Positions 1,380 to 27,801 of a stretch of DNA of 64,000 nucleotides are shown piece by piece. Location: the sequence record MH359124, one strand, 5' to 3'. The position numbers and the translations under genes are program-made. Below the pieces are notes generated by a model that did not search any database, was not told where the DNA came from, and saw only the letters and a list, made by a program, of their open reading frames with translations. The stretch's first letter is position 1, and each line of letters starts with the position of its first letter. The stretch is from Escherichia phage SF.

Positions 1380-4300
1380 CTAATTTAACCTGTGGTGGAT
1401 TAATCGGGTCTCTAGGATTTCCCACGTTATCTAACAATCTTTCATTAACAAGCTCTCTAAATCTAGAGAACGTTGTACCTGATGCATCAAATAATGGGCT
1501 CATTGGCTTGCGTCGTTCGGACGGTAATTGTCCTTGGAAAATAGAATTATCATTTTCTTCGTCATAATTTGCAGGTAAAGGGTATTCGATACCGGCATAA
1601 GGACCGGCATCATAAATTACTTCACCTGTAACAGGATTGAATTCTACATTACCTTGAGGGTCTAAACGAGCGACGCGGTCTGCATATTCCGTAGGCAGTC
1701 CGGAATCCCACTTATAATTTTTATATTTATTAATAATAGTTTCAACATGTTTAAGCGTTAATCCTGTGTTAATAAACATTGTTAATAAGGTTATTGCAAT
1801 AAATCCAAATCCTACCGGATGTACAAAACGTAGTACGTCAGATTTCCAACGAGAGGATGGAAGATTTGACTTTATTTTCATGACGTAATAAGCTCTACCA
1901 CGATTAAAATAATCAATAGTGTTTTGGGCAAGTTCTTTACCTTTAATACCGCGAACTATTTCACCTTCAAAATCTGCTAGTCTTTCGGCTTTTACTTCTT
2001 GACCGACTAAAAGCCTACCTAAAAGGTTATGAATAGTCACAGTCCATTGTAATTTACCTTTAGAATAGCTTCTTTCTAAATATGTAACATTACATCTACC
2101 TGTAGCGGTGTATATAGTTTGTCCAACCAAATCTTCACTTATAGAATCAGATTGAATTATGATATCGTACTCTGTTCCAGCAGATGACTCAATTTCCACT
2201 TCAACGTCTTCGTTATAAAGAACTTTAAACAAAAACTTATACGACGCTTCAGTTCCTTTAGTAGAATAAAAATCGTAACTTCTGGACTCAAAGAACCTAG
2301 AAACTAGATCACGTTTCTCAGCATTCAAATAAATGTTCCGTTTATAAATTTCAGACCAAAGATATTCCCATGCGTGTTCTTCTCGTGGGTATTTATTTTT
2401 AATCAAATTCAATAAGTTATTATAATGAGTCCCGTATCCATCAGAAAGATATTGAATATACGCTTCACAAAATGCTTCAAAGTTTGTATTATCCAACAGA
2501 TAAGACTCTGGCATCATTGTAGTGAGTAATGGGCGTAAATCCGGGTCAGCTAGACCTGTTTCTTCAACAGGAACCCAAGAAGTTTCTTTTTCTTGGTTTT
2601 GTAATGAGGAGGTCAAAAATACGTTAGTGGGCTTCCAAATTATAGAAACATTATCTCTAACACGATAACTAAAATCGTAATATGAAATTATTTCACCTGA
2701 TGATTTATAAAACAACATACCAGATGCGTATTTTTTAAATCCAGTGAATTCTATATTCGGCATAACAATCTTACAATCACCATCATTCCAGTATTCATGA
2801 ACTTTACGATCAGGTGAAGTGCTAGGGTGGCTTTCCACTACCTTTGTGTAAAGCAAATCAGAATAAATCACTACCGCTCTATCAGAGTTATTAATCCAAG
2901 AACGTGTGCCTGATTTTCTAGAATAACTAAAGAAAGGTTCTGCATAATACTGCATAGGAGTTGGTGAAAAAGTTTCCCAATTACTTTCTTCGTTTGATGC
3001 GAAAATCATCATATGGTAATGTTTATCTGCGAGCCATTCTCTAGGATATTCATACTTAACTGCTTCTAAAAGTCCATACTTAGATTGCGTTTCTGGGTCG
3101 TCAACAATATCAGATTCTAAAAATTTAAAATTACTAGAGGAGATATAAAGCTCAACACCATCAGTAGACATATTGGTGAAAGCCGGTTCTATACGACGGC
3201 GTTCTTCTTCGGTATTACCAAATATCCTTTTAAATGTTCCAGCGTCATGGTCTAAAACGTATACACCTTTATCAACGGAATCCAAAATAGGCTTTGTTCT
3301 TGGGTCGTCATTAACGTTTTCGACTTCACCAATAATAAGAGCGAATATTCTTCCACCAACAGAATCCATTTTATAACAAACTGCTTTAGGGTTGCCTGTT
3401 ATTGTAAACGTCTCGGGTTCAAACAACCGTTCGGAATAGGTCGGAGATAATGGATCTGAATCAATAGGAGCGTTACTGGTTTTAACGAAGCGAACTTTAT
3501 CTCTGGCCGCAATATAAACATAGTCATCATTACAAGTAATAGCTTCTGCAATACGTGATACGTTTCCTGGTAATGACGCGTATGTACCGAAAATCTCTAC
3601 ATCAAAACCTAAATTTAATCGGTCCCCGATTTTAGCAAACGTTACATCTTGTGAACTGAAACGAACATCATTAGCAGACCAACGAATATCGGATGATTTA
3701 CGCCCGTAAAAAATCTTATCATAGCCGAGCAAATACGTCGTATATTCTGATTGGTAATATACGGTTCGTGAAAGTGGATATCCTACACGGTCATTAAGCA
3801 ATTTAACCGCTTTCCATGTTTGGCCTTTATCATTAGACACTTTTACAATAGGTTGGAATCTTTCAAAAAGGTAAAGAATTCCTTCAGATTCCATTAGATA
3901 TACTCGATTTATATCTTTACATACGTCCTGGATATGCCCCTGGATTTCATGATACTGATTTTCGCCAATTATAAAATTTCTAATCGATGACACATCGGTG
4001 TATGCAGGACTAAATTGGAACGACTCGCTCATCAGCGCTGCCATGATCGTGTCATTATTAAAATCAACGTAGTTGGTATTATTTTTTGTAAATTTTTCAG
4101 AAATAAACTCATTAGCTAATTGCATTTCAATCATATGTTGGAATGTATAAGCGTTTATTTCAAATGTTTCAAACTCTTCGGTGTATCTCCAATCAGACTG
4201 CTCAAATCCCTCCGCTGCTGTAGCCACACGCATCATATATGTTGTTAATGAATTTAAACCAGACTCAAAGAAATTGTTATCAGCGGTATATCCTAAATTA

Positions 4301-13146: not shown

Positions 13147-13458
13147 ATGAAAACCTATCAAGAGTTTATCGCTGAAGCTACTAAAGCCGATAAAAATTTT
13201 ATTATTAACACCACCGGTCCGTTAGATGATGAATACGCTAATGCTATTATTAAGTCAATTTCTAATCAAGGCGTTGAAGTAACAAATTTCGAATATAAGA
13301 AAAATGATACTTATATGATAATTAGTATCAAAAAAGGTTCAAAAGCCAAAATTAAATCCGCATTTGGTGTTATGCGAGTTGACCAAATCGATAACCACGA
13401 TTTTTCACAAACAGGGGCCAAACGCCAAAATACCATTTCTTCTAAAGGCATAAAATAA
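13147..13458 (+). CDS. internal-protein-like injected protein with capsid targeting sequence
   Basis: N-terminus MKTYQEFIAEA equals T4 IP capsid-targeting sequence; 103 aa. Confidence 0.7.
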   Translation: MKTYQEFIAEATKADKNFIINTTGPLDDEYANAIIKSISNQGVEVTNFEYKKNDTYMIISIKKGSKAKIKSAFGVMRVDQIDNHDFSQTGAKRQNTISSKGIK

Positions 13459-15288: not shown

Positions 15289-15362
15289 GGCCCTGTAGCT
15301 CAACGGTTAGCAGCAGTCCCCTCATAAGGGAAAGGTTACCAGTTCGAATCTGGTCTGGGTCA
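15289..15362 (+). tRNA. tRNA with anticodon CAT (Met or lysidine-modified Ile)
   Basis: Hand fold: acceptor GGCCCTG/CTGGGTC (one mismatch, one GU), D-loop with GG, anticodon loop CTCATAA, T-arm ACCAG-TTCGAAT-CTGGT. Confidence 0.7.
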
Positions 15363-15368
15363 TATATT

Positions 15369-15445
<77 letters not shown>

Positions 15446-15809: not shown

Positions 15810-16120
15810 AAGCCGGGTCGCTACCGGTAAGTCGTCGGACTGATGTTCCCTGCGTAAGGACTGGTCTTAAATAAATCTTTATGATTTGTTAATATCCCCT
15901 TACATCACAGCAGAAACGGCGCACAGAATTATCGATTCGAGGAAATATCTTTGCCGTAAGCCGAGTAGCGTTTTTGACGGAACGTTCGGATATGGTCGAG
16001 ATATGGCCTTTTAAAAATATTGAGTAGCGTCAACTGCTTAATAACCGGGTTCGAATCCCGGCGTTTCGTACAAACACTTGCCTTAGCAGGTGGAACCCCG
16101 ACAAGGTTGCCGCAAGGCAT
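15810..16120 (+). ncRNA. tRNA-like structured small RNA region (possible rnaC/rnaD-type stable RNAs)
   Basis: No convincing protein ORF; canonical T-arm CCGGG-TTCGAAT-CCCGG at 16045-16061 with possible acceptor pairing CGGAACG/CGTTTCG; multiple hairpins; ends at strong terminator. Confidence 0.35.
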
Positions 16121-16149
16121 AGCCCCTTCCGAAAGGTTGGGGCTTTTTG
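16121..16149 (+). terminator. rho-independent terminator AGCCCC-TTCCGAAAGGTT-GGGGCT-TTTTT (repeat copy 1)
   Basis: GC stem plus T-run. Confidence 0.7.
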
Positions 16150-16193
16150 GCATAATAATAAATAGATAAGTTAATTAACTTAGGAAAAGCAAA

Positions 16194-16658
16194 ATGAAAT
16201 CATACGCCGAATTTTTGACTGAACAATCTAGTTCAGATGTAAAAGCCGCTGCGATTGCAGCAATTCAAGCAGGTAAATATTCTTACAAAGACGCCTCTGA
16301 TGAAGAACGTTTCCGTTTTATTAGAGATTTTAAAGCCGAAGGTTTTACTAATGCTAATACTGTTAGCCGAGTTTTTAAAAGCCTAGCTGCATCAGGTGAA
16401 TTGTTCCAGAAAGCTACAGGTAAAGCACCTGCGCCAAAAGCGGACCCTAAAGCCGCTCAAGAAAAAAATATCGCCAAAGGAATTATTTCTAAGTATGAAG
16501 CAATTCTTAAAGAGCTTTTAGTAATCAAAACAGAAGGCCAGAAACTGGCACGAGCACATAGCTTCAAAGATAATCCTCACGCTCATAGCCTTGAGTATGT
16601 TGAAGATATCCAAAAACTTATTAAAGACCGTATCTGGTCTGCTAAACAAATTAAATAA
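16194..16658 (+). CDS. internal-protein-like protein (CTS variant MKSYAEFLTE)
   Basis: 154 aa, N-terminal CTS-like motif, Ala/Lys-rich. Confidence 0.6.
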   Translation: MKSYAEFLTEQSSSDVKAAAIAAIQAGKYSYKDASDEERFRFIRDFKAEGFTNANTVSRVFKSLAASGELFQKATGKAPAPKADPKAAQEKNIAKGIISKYEAILKELLVIKTEGQKLARAHSFKDNPHAHSLEYVEDIQKLIKDRIWSAKQIK

Positions 16659-24181: not shown

Positions 24182-24670
24182 ATGAATATATTTGAAATGC
24201 TTCGTAATGACGAAGGTCTTAGACTGACTTTATACAAAGACACTGAAGGCTTTTGGACGATTGGCATAGGCCATTTAGTAGCAAAGAACCCATCTTTAGC
24301 CGTAGCTAAAGCTGAACTTGACAGAATGATCGGACGTAAATGCGACGGTACAATTACCCTTGATGAGGCTGAAAAGCTATTTAATGAAGACGTTGATAAA
24401 GCTGTTCGCGGAATCTTGGGTAATGCTAAACTTAAACCGGTATATGATTCTTTAGATGCAGTTCGTCGATGTGCGTTGGTCAATATGGTCTTCCAAATGG
24501 GTGTAGCAGGCGTCGCTGGTTTTACTAATTCTCTTCGTATGCTTCAACAGAAACGTTGGGACGAAGCGGCAGTAAATCTAGCCCAATCTAAATGGTATCG
24601 TCAGACACCTAATCGCGCGAAACGCGTAATCTCAACATTTAAAACAGGAACTTGGAAAGCGTATATATGA
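24182..24670 (+). CDS. e: endolysin (T4 lysozyme, gene e)
   Basis: [32 protein letters not shown]...; near-identical to T4 lysozyme over full length (162 aa). Confidence 0.97.
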
Positions 24671-24948
24671 AAACATATAGTGAATTTTTATCAGAATCTA
24701 TTCTTAACGAAGCTACTGACACCTTTGCAACTAAGCTAGGTGCAGCTTTGGTTGAAGCCGAAAGTCTATTAGCACGTATTTCTGAACTTGCTAGTAAGAT
24801 AGATACTCGCAAATTTGAACGTACAAGCGATATCGTTAAGCTTGAAGCCTTGTTGCGTATGTGCGATAAACCGGAAGAAATCGCCAAGAACGGTTCGCTG
24901 ATGAAACAACGTCTTGAAAAATATATTTCAGGCGCTTCAGAAAAATAG
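24667..24948 (+). CDS. internal-protein-like protein ([13 protein letters not shown])
   Basis: ATG overlaps lysozyme stop (ATATGA); adjacent to e like T4 ipIII/ipII. Confidence 0.6.
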
Positions 24949-25004
24949 TGTTTACTTCCTCCAAGGGTTTTGATACTATACATTCATCAACTACTTGGAG
25001 GAAA
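24947..25004 (+). promoter_or_regulatory. early promoter (GTTTAC, TACTAT) with arms TTCCTCCAAG / CTTGGAGGAA pairing upstream region to the denV RBS
   Basis: gtGTTTACTTCCTCCAAGggttttgaTACTATacattcatcaactaCTTGGAGGAAattATG. Confidence 0.5.
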
Positions 25005-25006
25005 TT

Positions 25007-25420
25007 ATGACTCGTATCAATTTAACACTTGTTTCTGAACTGACCGACCAACATCTTATGGCTGAGTATCGTGAATTACCACGCGTATTTGGTGCAGTCC
25101 GTAAACATGTTCAAAACGGTAAACGTGTAAAGGATTTTAAAATCTCTCCAACATTTATCTTAGGCACAGGTCACGTAACATTCTTTTACGACAAACTCGA
25201 ATTTTTACGTTTACGTCAAATCGAGCTAATCGCTGAATGCTTGAAACGTGGTTTCAAAATCAAGGACACAACTGTCCAGGATATTTCCGACATCCCTGCC
25301 GAATTTCGTAATAATTATATCCCGACTGAAGCGTCCATTGCGATAAGTCAAGCACGCTTAGACGAAAAAATTGCCCAACGTCCTACTTGGTACAAATACT
25401 ATGGTAAATCAATTTACTAA
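25007..25420 (+). CDS. denV: endonuclease V, pyrimidine dimer DNA glycosylase (DenV)
   Basis: [35 protein letters not shown]...; matches T4 DenV (137 aa). Confidence 0.95.
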
Positions 25421-25449
25421 GGAAAAAGGTGGCGATGGTAAAGCTTAAA

Positions 25450-25500
25450 CAGTTTACGCTTAAGTATTAATATGGTATAATTACTCTATCAAAACAAACA
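25450..25500 (+). promoter_or_regulatory. early promoter (GTTTAC -35, TATAAT -10)
   Basis: caGTTTACgcttaagtattaatatggTATAATtactctatcaaaacaa. Confidence 0.55.
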
Positions 25501-25511
25501 AGGAAACAAAA

Positions 25512-25814
25512 ATGAAAACATATCAAGAATTTATTACCGAAGCGCGAGTGAGTGCAGGTAAATTAGAAGCCGCTATAAATAAAAAGGCCCATTCATTTCA
25601 CGATTTGTCCGATAAAGACCGTAAGAAACTTGTAAGCCTTTATATTGACAAAGAGCGTATTCTCGCTCTTCCTGGCGCTAATGAAGGTAAACAGGCCAAG
25701 CCTTTGAATGCTGTCGAAAAGAAAATTGATAACTTTGCTTCTAAATTCGGTATGTCTATGGATGACCTTCAGCAAGCGGCTATCGAAGCAGCTAAAGTAA
25801 TTAAAGGTAAATAA
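25512..25814 (+). CDS. ipII: internal protein II-like (CTS MKTYQEFITEA)
   Basis: 100 aa; N-terminal CTS; resembles recalled T4 IPII; next to denV as in T4. Confidence 0.65.
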   Translation: MKTYQEFITEARVSAGKLEAAINKKAHSFHDLSDKDRKKLVSLYIDKERILALPGANEGKQAKPLNAVEKKIDNFASKFGMSMDDLQQAAIEAAKVIKGK

Positions 25815-25868
25815 CAGTTTACTTTCTCCTAGAATTGTGATAGTATATTCATAATTACTTGGAGAGGT
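25814..25868 (+). promoter_or_regulatory. PeSL-like early promoter (GTTTAC; TAGTAT) with CTCC/GGAG arms
   Basis: caGTTTACtttctcctagaattgtgaTAGTATattcataattacttGGAGAGG. Confidence 0.45.
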
Positions 25869-25986
25869 AAAATGACTCAATGAAAAAATTTTAATGAAGC
25901 CACACTGGTATAAGTATTAAGGCAAAAATATTTACATTCAAATAACATGGGAACAAGCTGGACCTCATGATTCTATGAGGGATTCC

Positions 25987-26085
25987 CGCCAACCTGTAAT
26001 AAGGTCGAGCCCAAGTGCGGTAATGGGTAATACAGAAATGGACAATTCGCGTGCCATGGAATGGCACAAACCTAGAGAGAACAAA
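25987..26085 (+). repeat. about 100 nt repeated leader element, copy A (upstream of CTS gene 26086)
   Basis: CCAACCTGTAATAAGGTCGAGCCCAAGTGCGGTAATGGGT...CGTGCCATGGAATGGCAC...AGAGAACAAAATG; second copy at 26485. Confidence 0.6.
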
Positions 26086-26415
26086 ATGAAAACATATCAA
26101 GAGTTTATCACTGAAGTTACATTATCTGCGGAACAGAAAGCTGCTATCGAAGAAGGTAAAAATCCCAAAGTAACATATAAAGTAAATAGTAAAGGCGTTT
26201 TTGATGGCTTGGTTCAAGACCCTGAATTGAAAAAAGCTCTTTCTAAAACTAATGCGTACTTTGCTCCTAAATTTAACACAGCCGGTGTACTTATTGGATT
26301 GGATGTATTCAACTCTAAAGGTGTTCTATCTAATGCCTTTGGTTATGCCGCTAACAAAATTACTAAAGCCGCATGGGAATCCAATACCAAACAAGCTCAA
26401 AAGCCTAGAGTATAA
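26086..26415 (+). CDS. internal-protein-like protein (CTS MKTYQEFITEV)
   Basis: Start at internal ATG; track N-terminal extension covers the repeated leader; 109 aa. Confidence 0.65.
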   Translation: MKTYQEFITEVTLSAEQKAAIEEGKNPKVTYKVNSKGVFDGLVQDPELKKALSKTNAYFAPKFNTAGVLIGLDVFNSKGVLSNAFGYAANKITKAAWESNTKQAQKPRV

Positions 26416-26484
26416 TTCTTGCCTAATAAAGGGAAACGCAACCTCTCCTTATGAACGTCGAGTCCTCTGAGTGATGTACCTTTT

Positions 26485-26587
26485 CCAACCTGTAATAAGG
26501 TCGAGCGCAATGCGGTAATGGGTTTACATAGCGAGTCGAAGGACATAACACGTGCCACGGAATGGCCCAACCTAAAAGAGAAACTAA
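26485..26587 (+). repeat. repeated leader element, copy B (upstream of gene 26588)
   Basis: CCAACCTGTAATAAGGTCGAGCGCAATGCGGTAATGGGT...CGTGCCACGGAATGGCCC...AAGAGAAACTAAATG. Confidence 0.6.
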
Positions 26588-27127
26588 ATGAGAACATTTT
26601 TAACTGGACCTTATCTATCCCTGATGAATGCTTTTACACACCATTCTGATGCTAGAGTAGAAGAAATTTGTAAGAATGGTTATATCCCGCCATTTGAAGA
26701 CGTACTCAAGCAGTACTGTACACTTCGTTTAGACGGCGGCAGACAATCAGGTAAATCAACTGCAGTAACTAATTTTGCGGCTAATTGGCTGCACGACGGT
26801 GGAACAGTTATTGTTCTTTCTAATACTTCAGCTTATGCTAAAATTTCTGCTGGCAACATTAAAAAAGAATTTTCTCGTTATTCTAGCGATGATATTCGAT
26901 TCCGTTTATTTACTGATTCTGTCCGTAGTTTTATTGGCAATGAAGGTTCTAAATTCCGTGGATTAACGCTTTCTCGTATTCTGTATATAATTGACGAGCC
27001 TATTAAAGCTCCTGATATGGATAAGATTTACAATGTCCATATTAAATCAGTACAGCACTGCTGCAAAAGCAAATATTGCATCAGCGGTACTGCTCGTCCT
27101 CAATTTTTTGTGATTGGACTGCAATGA
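26588..27127 (+). CDS. small P-loop NTPase
   Basis: Walker A GGRQSGKST and Walker B-like LYIIDEP; 179 aa. Confidence 0.6.
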   Translation: MRTFLTGPYLSLMNAFTHHSDARVEEICKNGYIPPFEDVLKQYCTLRLDGGRQSGKSTAVTNFAANWLHDGGTVIVLSNTSAYAKISAGNIKKEFSRYSSDDIRFRLFTDSVRSFIGNEGSKFRGLTLSRILYIIDEPIKAPDMDKIYNVHIKSVQHCCKSKYCISGTARPQFFVIGLQ

Positions 27128-27438: not shown

Positions 27439-27801
27439 ATGAAAGCATATCAAATTCTTGAAGGTGCACATAAAGGCACTATTTATTTTGAAGACGGTAC
27501 TCAAGCCCGGATTATCGTCTCTAAGACTTTTAAAGAAGACGCTATTGTAGACCCGGAAATTTTCTACGGTTTGAATGCCCGTGAAATTGAAATTGAACAT
27601 CAACCTAAAGTTAAAATTGAAGGTGGTCAACACCTGAACGTTAACGTTCTGCGTCGTGAAACTTTGGAAGATGCAGTTAAGCATCCAGAAAAATATCCGC
27701 AGCTGACCATCCGTGTATCCGGTTATGCAGTTCGCTTTAACTCTCTGACTCCGGAACAGCAGCGCGACGTTATCGCTCGTACCTTTACTGAGAGTCTATA
27801 A
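27439..27801 (+). CDS. grcA: autonomous glycyl radical cofactor (GrcA/YfiD-like; T4 Y06I-type)
   Basis: C-terminal RVSGYAVRF glycyl radical motif; C-terminal 60 aa appear identical to E. coli GrcA as recalled; E. coli-like codons in 3' half. Confidence 0.85.

Follow-up and report, generated by a model that had tools for sequence, protein, structure and literature searches.

A predicted internal-protein locus between e and vs.8 of Escherichia phage SF: three leader-bearing genes and a duplicated conserved element

Three genes of Escherichia phage SF (sequence record MH359124), here named IPa, IPb and IPc, encode proteins which begin with a leader resembling the capsid targeting sequence that phage T4's internal proteins (Ips) carry. 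We analysed the genes within a stretch of 64,000 nucleotides (nt) of this record, referred to below as the window. It is highly probable that the segment around them represents the e-to-vs.8 internal-protein locus of a Mosigvirus, an RB69/HX01-like T-even phage, in which three non-homologous proteins share nothing but a 10-residue capsid targeting sequence; this estimate is a joint one for the identity of the locus, for the proposed mechanism of packaging and anti-defence and for the assembly of the locus from cassettes. All three leaders are present, IPb corresponds to Ip2 of T4, IPa belongs to the Ip5 family and IPc to an orphan family, and the architecture of the locus can be read directly. 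Compared with T4, where the order across the corresponding interval is e - ipIII - ipII - denV - vs.8, the alignments identify the locus as a rearranged version with cassettes of the promoter-early stem-loop (PeSL) type and a decayed remnant of denV. IPc is enclosed by two copies of a conserved element of about 120 nt.

Results

The capsid-targeting leader

The starts of the three genes on the plus strand, as given in a first-pass annotation made from the sequence, agree to the base with the list of open reading frames (ORFs) and with the sequence itself (Table 1). The same annotation placed the genes on both sides of denV, which holds for IPa and IPb with denV between them and not for IPc, which is located downstream of IPb. 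All three proteins start with about 10 residues similar to MKTYQEFIAE in which Tyr4 and Phe7 are present, and in all of them the L/I-x-E motif of the prohead protease gp21 ends at residue 10 with Glu, not Asp (L-S-E in IPa, I-T-E in IPb and IPc). In the leader of T4 IPIII, Tyr4 and Phe7 serve targeting and position 8 and Glu10 serve processing by gp21 at its L/I-x-E motif; the first ten residues of IPIII suffice for incorporation into the prohead core (PMC9026906), and foreign proteins fused to the T4 leader are packaged and delivered (PMC9026906, PMC3012670). Every residue that was experimentally mapped as important in IPIII is found in all three proteins, which upholds the proposed match to the T4 targeting sequence. 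A six-frame translation of the window contains five instances of the leader word MK.Y.[ED][FLI]..E, each of which opens a plus-strand ORF of at least 93 amino acids (aa); 200 block shuffles contained none. At the DNA level, the Ip gene starts form a 34-nt direct-repeat family, in which IPb and IPc are 91% identical and IPa reaches 71%.

Behind the leader, the bodies of the proteins are unrelated, as had been noticed before. BLASTP from residue 11 on gave no match between IPa and IPc or between IPb and IPc, and a match of 11 residues (E 0.016) between IPa and IPb. Searches of Pfam and NCBIfam returned nothing for IPa, IPb and IPc, the only Pfam match of IPb being a sub-threshold one to DUF7412, and a sequence search of the PDB revealed no solved relatives of IPa and IPc. 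Homologue searches for the Ip proteins yielded 2 and 5 clusters, too shallow for alignment building, and AlphaFold (AF2) predictions were run without alignment. Of the structure predictions suggested earlier as a check, the one for IPa gave an all-helical model with a predicted local distance difference test (pLDDT) of 73 and a predicted template modelling score (pTM) of 0.34; the one for IPc gave no usable fold (pLDDT 49). The isoelectric point (pI) of the mature part is 9.7 for IPb and for IPc, 6.3 for IPa and 9.6-9.7 for T4 IPII and IPIII.

IPb, IPa and IPc

With 81 of 86 aligned residues identical (94%), IPb is, by sequence, the orthologue of T4 IPII/Ip2. Its leader MKTYQEFITE is followed by ARV. 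The sole T4 late-promoter word of the locus, TATAAATA, is located inside the IPb coding sequence at 25574-25581 and points towards IPc; it arises from an Ile codon at a place where T4 Ip2 has Val.

IPa was matched to ip5 of phage PP01 with an E-value of 9e-27 over 84 residues, and matches of the IPa family were found in 495 phage records. Candidate gp21 cleavage sites are present after Glu10 (L-S-E) and after Glu15 (L-N-E). Gene e ends in a stop codon that overlaps the start of IPa (ATGA, 24667-24670), an arrangement suggestive of translational coupling between IPa and the lysozyme gene. Phage HX01 (locus L001 of our comparison, 3568-3836) has two short coding sequences annotated in place of one IPa gene, and the tblastn match is likewise in two pieces; judged from the sequence, this viable phage carries a disrupted Ip gene.

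The leader of IPc, MKTYQEFITE, is followed by VTL. The longest ORF in this frame begins at 25975, and the MKTY start at 26086 is the one common to the homologues. IPc occurs in 89 phage records, with an identity of ≥ 95% in 75, and is absent from HX01. In all listed rows but one it is recorded as a "hypothetical protein" or is unannotated, the exception being a relative of 35% identity labelled "RNA polymerase ADP-ribosylase". Among 1.84 billion representatives, only two clusters at 50% identity belong to IPc. The one true cluster besides its own is ORF115 of Dhakavirus WG01, which is 36% identical, starts with MKTYQQFITE and lies between denV and vs.8; other distant matches from this search were long repetitive proteins and were discarded. 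IPc is regarded as a candidate internal protein because it has the same leader, a basic mature part and its only relative in the same interval of WG01. The family of IPc is very small and restricted to T-even phages, with phrog_3966 as the only PHROG match, and it probably constitutes a new, unnamed Ip family.

Rearrangement of the e-to-vs.8 interval

Over 2.6 kb around the Ip genes, the sequence shares 97.7% identity with Escherichia phage TH58 and about 96% with HX01 and JS09; HX01 is classified as a Mosigvirus (RB69-like T-even phages). Of the two variable Ip loci that T-even phages have, IPa, IPb and IPc occupy the e...vs.8 interval, which in T4 harbors ipIII and ipII. Two PeSL-type cassettes were identified in this interval. 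The consensus of PeSL early promoters in T4/PST-type phages is TTTACW-N17-TAYWAT (PMC4122927), to which cassette 1 conforms exactly and cassette 2 with one mismatch (TAGTAT). Cassette 1 aligns with the junctions upstream of denV in T4 and WG01. Cassette 2 aligns with the ipII-denV junction of T4 up to ATGACTC, the first seven bases of denV, and the sequences diverge beyond that point.

Because cassette 2 runs into ATGACTC, followed by about 65 nt of a decayed 3' end of denV, the ancestral order was ipII - denV - vs.8 as in T4. The live denV is now found upstream of ipII, behind a PeSL of its own, and such a relocation at a PeSL fits the recombination role that has been proposed for these cassettes. 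We propose that recombination brought the Ip set together at short non-coding cassettes that are conserved, and that denV would have moved between IPa and IPb at a PeSL cassette, leaving its remnant behind IPb.

The vs.8 homologue at the right end of the locus shows weak matches to P-loop NTPase-like proteins, with sub-threshold scores for AAA and terminase N-terminal Pfam families. Homologues have similar lengths, with 177-179 aa in HX01 and in the T-even contig L112 and 175 aa in WG01. A literature search for vs.8 and denV returned nothing but dengue papers.

Table 1 Features of the e-to-vs.8 interval and further leader genes in the window.
Feature	Position	Strand	Evidence
Gene e, T4-type lysozyme, left landmark	24182..24670	+	Pfam PF00959 9.4e-14
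IPa, Ip5-family internal protein, 93 aa	24667..24948	+	phrog_3499 "internal head protein" 1.2e-46; 51% identity to PP01 ip5
PeSL-type cassette 1, TTTACT-N17-TACTAT in a stem-loop; 3' arm holds the denV Shine-Dalgarno GGAGG	24950..25006	+	Inverted repeat I2; fold -19.8 kcal/mol, z -3.4
denV (endonuclease V, pyrimidine-dimer glycosylase), intact, relocated relative to T4	25007..25420	+	PF03013 3.4e-14; phrog_1183 1.3e-62
Promoter-like TTTACG-N17-TATAAT, extended -10 TG, upstream of IPb	25453..25481	+	Consensus match only, 10/12
IPb, orthologue of T4 IPII/Ip2, 100 aa, N-terminus MKTYQEFITEARVS	25512..25814	+	94% identity to T4 ipII; phrog_7857 4.5e-55
PeSL-type cassette 2, TTTACT-N17-TAGTAT in a stem-loop	25817..25871	+	Fold -20.7 kcal/mol, z -3.2; aligns with the T4 ipII-denV junction
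denV remnant: ATGACTC followed by CAATGA stop, fused to the final ~60 nt of denV in decayed form	25872..25945	+	Alignments
Structured element copy A (T4 type)	25949..26067	+	Covariance-model match 25980-26035, 69.5 bits; repeat D3; covariation
IPc, candidate internal protein of an unnamed family, 109 aa, N-terminus MKTYQEFITEVTLS	26086..26415	+	phrog_3966 ("unknown function") 2.8e-32
Structured element copy B, different 5' domain (CCUCUCCUUAUGAAC...CUCUGAGUGAUG)	26442..26567	+	Covariance-model match 26476-26530, 66.6 bits
vs.8 homologue, 179 aa, right landmark	26588..27127	+	phrog_1488 2.3e-77
Fourth leader gene, 103 aa, MKTYQEFIAEA	13147..13458	+	phrog_2667 "internal head protein" 1.9e-38
Fifth leader gene, 154 aa, MKSYAEFLTEQ, downstream of two tRNA genes	16194..16658	+	phrog_2280 ("unknown function") 1.1e-53

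A conserved element on both sides of IPc

Copy A of the element ends 18 nt before the start codon of IPc. Its outer helix GGGAA/UUCCC encloses the hairpin CCUCAU/AUGAGG, after which follow a core at 25989-26026 and a 3' hairpin GUGCCA/UGGCAC; the core consists of P1 (CCA/UGG), P2 (ACCU-GUAAUA-AGGU), CGA, P3 (GC-N6-GC) and GGUAA. Copy B ends 20 nt before the vs.8-like start and has the same core with a 1-nt deletion in the P3 loop, followed by the 3' hairpin GUGCCA/UGGC. The core, about 45 nt long, is repeated at 25989-26029 and 26485-26524 (repeat D3). When the 64 kb were searched with a covariance model built from 22 diverse copies, exactly these two copies flanking IPc were recovered, with the next best match at 14 bits. 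HX01, T4 and WG01 have one copy each, directly upstream of vs.8. In contig L112 the element is followed by an Ip gene and then by vs.8, and copies of type B precede vs.8 or Ip genes in other T-even phages. We read IPc as a recombination cassette because it is placed between two copies of an element that normally precedes vs.8; it would have been gained, or lost in HX01, by homologous recombination between the structured elements together with the shared start region AAAATGARAACAT.

The element is found in 1,108 phage records including T4 (NC_000866, about 64,790-64,912). It is spread over Straboviridae, Vequintavirinae, Phapecoctavirus, Schitoviridae and Pseudomonas Flaumdravirus (loci including L002, L003, L005, L127 and L128). 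Among its carriers, Vequintavirus CarlMeissner, Phapecoctavirus DE16, schitovirus Pylas and Pseudomonas phage KIL4 have it within or adjoining a tRNA cluster, on the strand of the tRNA genes and without an ORF. No Rfam 15 family overlaps the element at the gathering threshold or at E-values up to 5, neither in the window nor in five other loci; blastn against E. coli genomes returned nothing, the exact core pattern occurred 0 times in 185,579 bacterial and archaeal genomes, and string searches of the literature for the element gave nothing. In scans of viral and metagenome sequences with a loose pattern, most matches were chance occurrences in GC-rich contigs, which were dropped by requiring the P2 hairpin. 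Likenesses to hammerhead and twister ribozymes, to the anticodon loop of tRNA-Tyr or tRNA-His, and to the L11/L10 region of 23S rRNA (hexaloop 1093-1098) were considered, and none of them is claimed here.

The general core can be described as P1 of 3-4 bp, ACCU-GURRNA-AGGU, CGA, a short P3, GGUAA and the 3' strand of P1. In an alignment of 41 distinct copies fitted to this core model, 89% of the cells are paired, and 22 cells are changed on both sides compared with 7.5 ± 1.9 in shuffles. The closing pair 12-46 occurs as AU (27), UA (5), CG (4), UG (4) and GC (1) and is unpaired in none. P2 appears as ACCU/AGGU, as ACCA/UGGU in KIL4 and as GCCU/AGGC in a tandem second copy (L102), and the outer helix appears as GGGAA/UUCCC, GGGAG/CUCCC, GGAAC/GUUCC and GGAG/CUCC. 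The core itself is nearly invariant, and the support that covariation lends to a three-way-junction core is therefore moderate, not strong. When the element is folded as a single sequence by minimum free energy, the result is no better than for shuffles (z -0.4 to -1.1), and the case for a structure is therefore a comparative one only. An alternative core proposed by RNAalifold, CUGUA/UGCGG, is broken in KIL4, T4, L055 and L093 and was rejected; the P2/P3 model is kept in these sequences.

We tentatively propose that the element is a structured RNA which acts as an autonomous module, either as a stable small RNA engaging a conserved host factor or as a leader controlling the gene behind it, and which in T-even phages would additionally offer portable homology for exchanges of Ip genes. 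This is a possible rather than a probable reading as a whole. As annotated in T4 (NC_000866 64253..64912; L126 1754-2413), vs.8 is extended by 120 nt (40 codons) upstream relative to the start that its homologues use; the extension covers the element and is probably not translated. One could take the element instead for something other than an RNA structure, namely for a protein-coding N-terminal extension such as the one annotated for T4 vs.8, or merely for a conserved DNA site of recombination. The frame through the element is indeed open and in frame with the downstream start both in T4 and in copy A, and with an almost invariant core the covariation depends on few positions. However, the 1-nt deletion of copy B closes this frame while the fold is retained, and copies of the Pylas type carry a TAA codon in it; due to these two observations a coding function is unlikely. 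In addition, the vs.8 homologues of HX01, WG01 and L112 start after the element. Changes at paired positions occur together (pair 12-46, P2 and the outer helix), U-G pairs are found on the sense strand only, and four unrelated phage groups have the element among tRNA genes, on their strand and without an ORF. We therefore consider it improbable that the element is coding or a mere DNA site, and retain the structured RNA as our working proposal.

Further leader genes and neighboring observations

The two remaining occurrences of the leader word belong to a fourth and a fifth gene (Table 1). The gene at 13147 is preceded by a PeSL-type cassette, the third of its kind, and its position seems to resemble the 57B-tRNA Ip locus of PP01. 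The tRNA genes upstream of the fifth gene are located at 15289-15445. Between them and the ORF at 16194, the region 16040-16160 includes the sequence GGTTCGAATCCCGG, which resembles a tRNA T-arm, together with a terminator-like hairpin, and may encode a small stable RNA similar to rnaC/rnaD of T4. Downstream of vs.8, an ORF for a GrcA-like glycyl-radical protein (homologue of vs.6, 27439-27801) starts with MKAYQILEG, and its DNA TATATGAAAGCATAT resembles the starts of the Ip genes, probably by chance or by homology of a shared start region.

In Klebsiella phage Pylas (L127 2440-3150), a non-coding stretch of 1 kb behind the tRNA cluster contains tandem long stems and, at about 2672-2745, a tRNA-like piece. 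The region 2440-3150 gave a weak match to permuted transfer-messenger RNA of 33.7 bits, which is below the gathering threshold.

Discussion

Packaging, cleavage, injection and the targets of IPa, IPb and IPc we infer from homology and from the literature. By analogy with T4, the leader would bind to the scaffolding core, whereby the Ip proteins would be built into the prohead. The protease gp21 would cut after Glu10 within L/I-x-E and release mature proteins of 9-11 kDa, which would remain in the DNA-filled head and enter the cell together with the DNA. Once injected, they would inhibit host defences directed against modified DNA, most probably distinct variants of GmrSD-type type IV enzymes with one inhibitor for each. 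Expression of the Ip genes at the time of head assembly is assumed in this scheme. T4 Ip1, Ip2 and Ip3 were described in 2025 to inhibit a different GmrSD type IV enzyme each and without cross-protection, Ip2 acting on that of ECOR21 and Ip3 on that of ECOR17; other proteins of the two Ip loci were proposed as GmrSD inhibitors too, and at least ten Ips were recognised by their signal sequence (PMC12373910). The reading of such proteins as candidates for anti-restriction or anti-defence functions, which the first-pass annotation had put forward, has become the published view (PMC12373910); for IPb it is supported by the 94% identity to T4 Ip2, and for IPa and IPc it is an analogy. IPb is predicted, from its orthology, to inhibit a BrxU/GmrSD-ECOR21-like enzyme, and IPa and IPc are candidate inhibitors of other GmrSD variants.

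Several points weigh against this interpretation. No late promoter TATAAATA is present upstream of IPa, IPb or IPc. The Ips of T4 are basic, whereas the mature part of IPa has a pI of 6.3, close to neutral; the predictions of structure are weak for IPa (pTM 0.34) and without a usable fold for IPc (pLDDT 49). The DNA modification of RB69-type phages is arabinosyl rather than glucosyl, and the relevant host enzymes may differ here from those tried with T4. A difference from T4 in the sugar modification of RB69-type DNA has been reported (PMC13326640). We found no Mosigvirus proteome in the literature that lists IPa, IPb or IPc. The T4 map places the genes for the prohead protease gp21 and for the gp22 scaffold core beyond the window of 64 kb; in T4-related phages, both are described as belonging to the core genes (PMC9026906).

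Instead of being a defence inhibitor, at least one of the three proteins could be packaged mainly for head assembly or DNA condensation, as was proposed for T4 IPIII. The most plausible candidate for such a role is the near-neutral, helical IPa, which is predicted to form long helices and occupies the position of ipIII right behind gene e; moreover, polyheads accumulate in T4 mutants lacking IPIII or all three Ips (PMC9026906). We consider this explanation quite improbable. T4 Ip3 itself inhibits the GmrSD of ECOR17 (PMC12373910), the IPa gene is disrupted into two short coding sequences in the viable phage HX01, and the Ip5 family is patchily distributed as expected of an accessory gene. Least probable, and very much so, is that the shared N-terminus is only a module for recombination or translation initiation, about 30 nt copied along with gene starts, and that IPa and IPc are ordinary early accessory proteins which work within the infected cell and are not packaged: the leader is conserved as DNA (91% identity between IPb and IPc over the 34-nt repeat), the starts of vs.8 (AAATGAGAACAT) and of the GrcA-like gene (TATATGAAAGCATAT) resemble the leader DNA and the upstream promoters are of an early and not a late type, but the IPa leader has diverged to 71% DNA identity with many synonymous and non-synonymous changes and yet retains Tyr4, Phe7, Leu8 and Glu10, the WG01 relative of IPc retains MKTYQQFITE at just 36% overall identity, and ten residues of the T4 leader are enough to package foreign proteins (PMC3012670, PMC9026906). 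We thus favor leader-directed packaging of three putative defence inhibitors.

This kind of system is already known, since T-even phages carry variable sets of capsid-targeted, injected proteins, and with all three T4 Ips being known GmrSD inhibitors since 2025 the finding as such changes little. IPb is already known as a protein, and IPa falls into a family that has a name; what is new are IPc as a probable unnamed Ip family and the element of about 120 nt as an undescribed one. The inventory of at least five leader-bearing genes in 64 kb of one phage should be useful. None of the listed phage records labels IPc as an internal protein, and we regard it as a candidate for a new defence inhibitor in phages with arabinosyl-modified DNA. 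The locus also illustrates, by its PeSL junctions, the denV remnant and the duplicated structured elements, how an Ip repertoire may be rebuilt. If the element is a real RNA, a conserved non-coding RNA would have been overlooked in the best-studied phage since an ORF was annotated over it.

With regard to known systems, the element has in common with GOLLD, ROOL and other phage RNAs among the structured RNAs of Rfam a frequent location next to phage tRNA genes, and it differs from such RNAs in matching no Rfam 15 family. Cassettes 1 and 2 correspond to PeSLs (Arbiol 2010, Comeau 2014) in that the published promoter consensus lies within a stem-loop at a junction of rearrangement. The element around IPc differs from PeSLs in two respects: a promoter scan detected no promoter-like site on the plus strand of either copy, and its core is conserved far beyond the T4 superfamily. 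IPa resembles Ip5 of T2/PP01-type Tequatroviruses in sequence (51% over 84 residues), in length and in its assignment to phrog_3499. It differs in residues 7-10, which are F-L-S-E in IPa and F-A-T-E in PP01 Ip5, and in location, as PP01 ip5 is placed in the 57B-tRNA locus while IPa directly follows gene e, where T4 has ipIII. The Ip5 family therefore occurs in both Ip loci and moves between them. IPb shares with T4 IPII/Ip2 (NP_049734) the length of 100 aa, the leader except for a change of Ala9 to Thr and the PeSL junction behind the gene; in T4, however, ipII lies between ipIII and denV, whereas IPb here comes after denV and has the denV remnant behind it. T4 IPI*/Ip1, the inhibitor of the CT596 GmrSD, has no sequence similarity to IPa, IPb or IPc, but it provides the model for leader-directed packaging, cleavage by gp21, injection and one-to-one inhibition of type IV enzymes (PMC3012670, PMC12373910).

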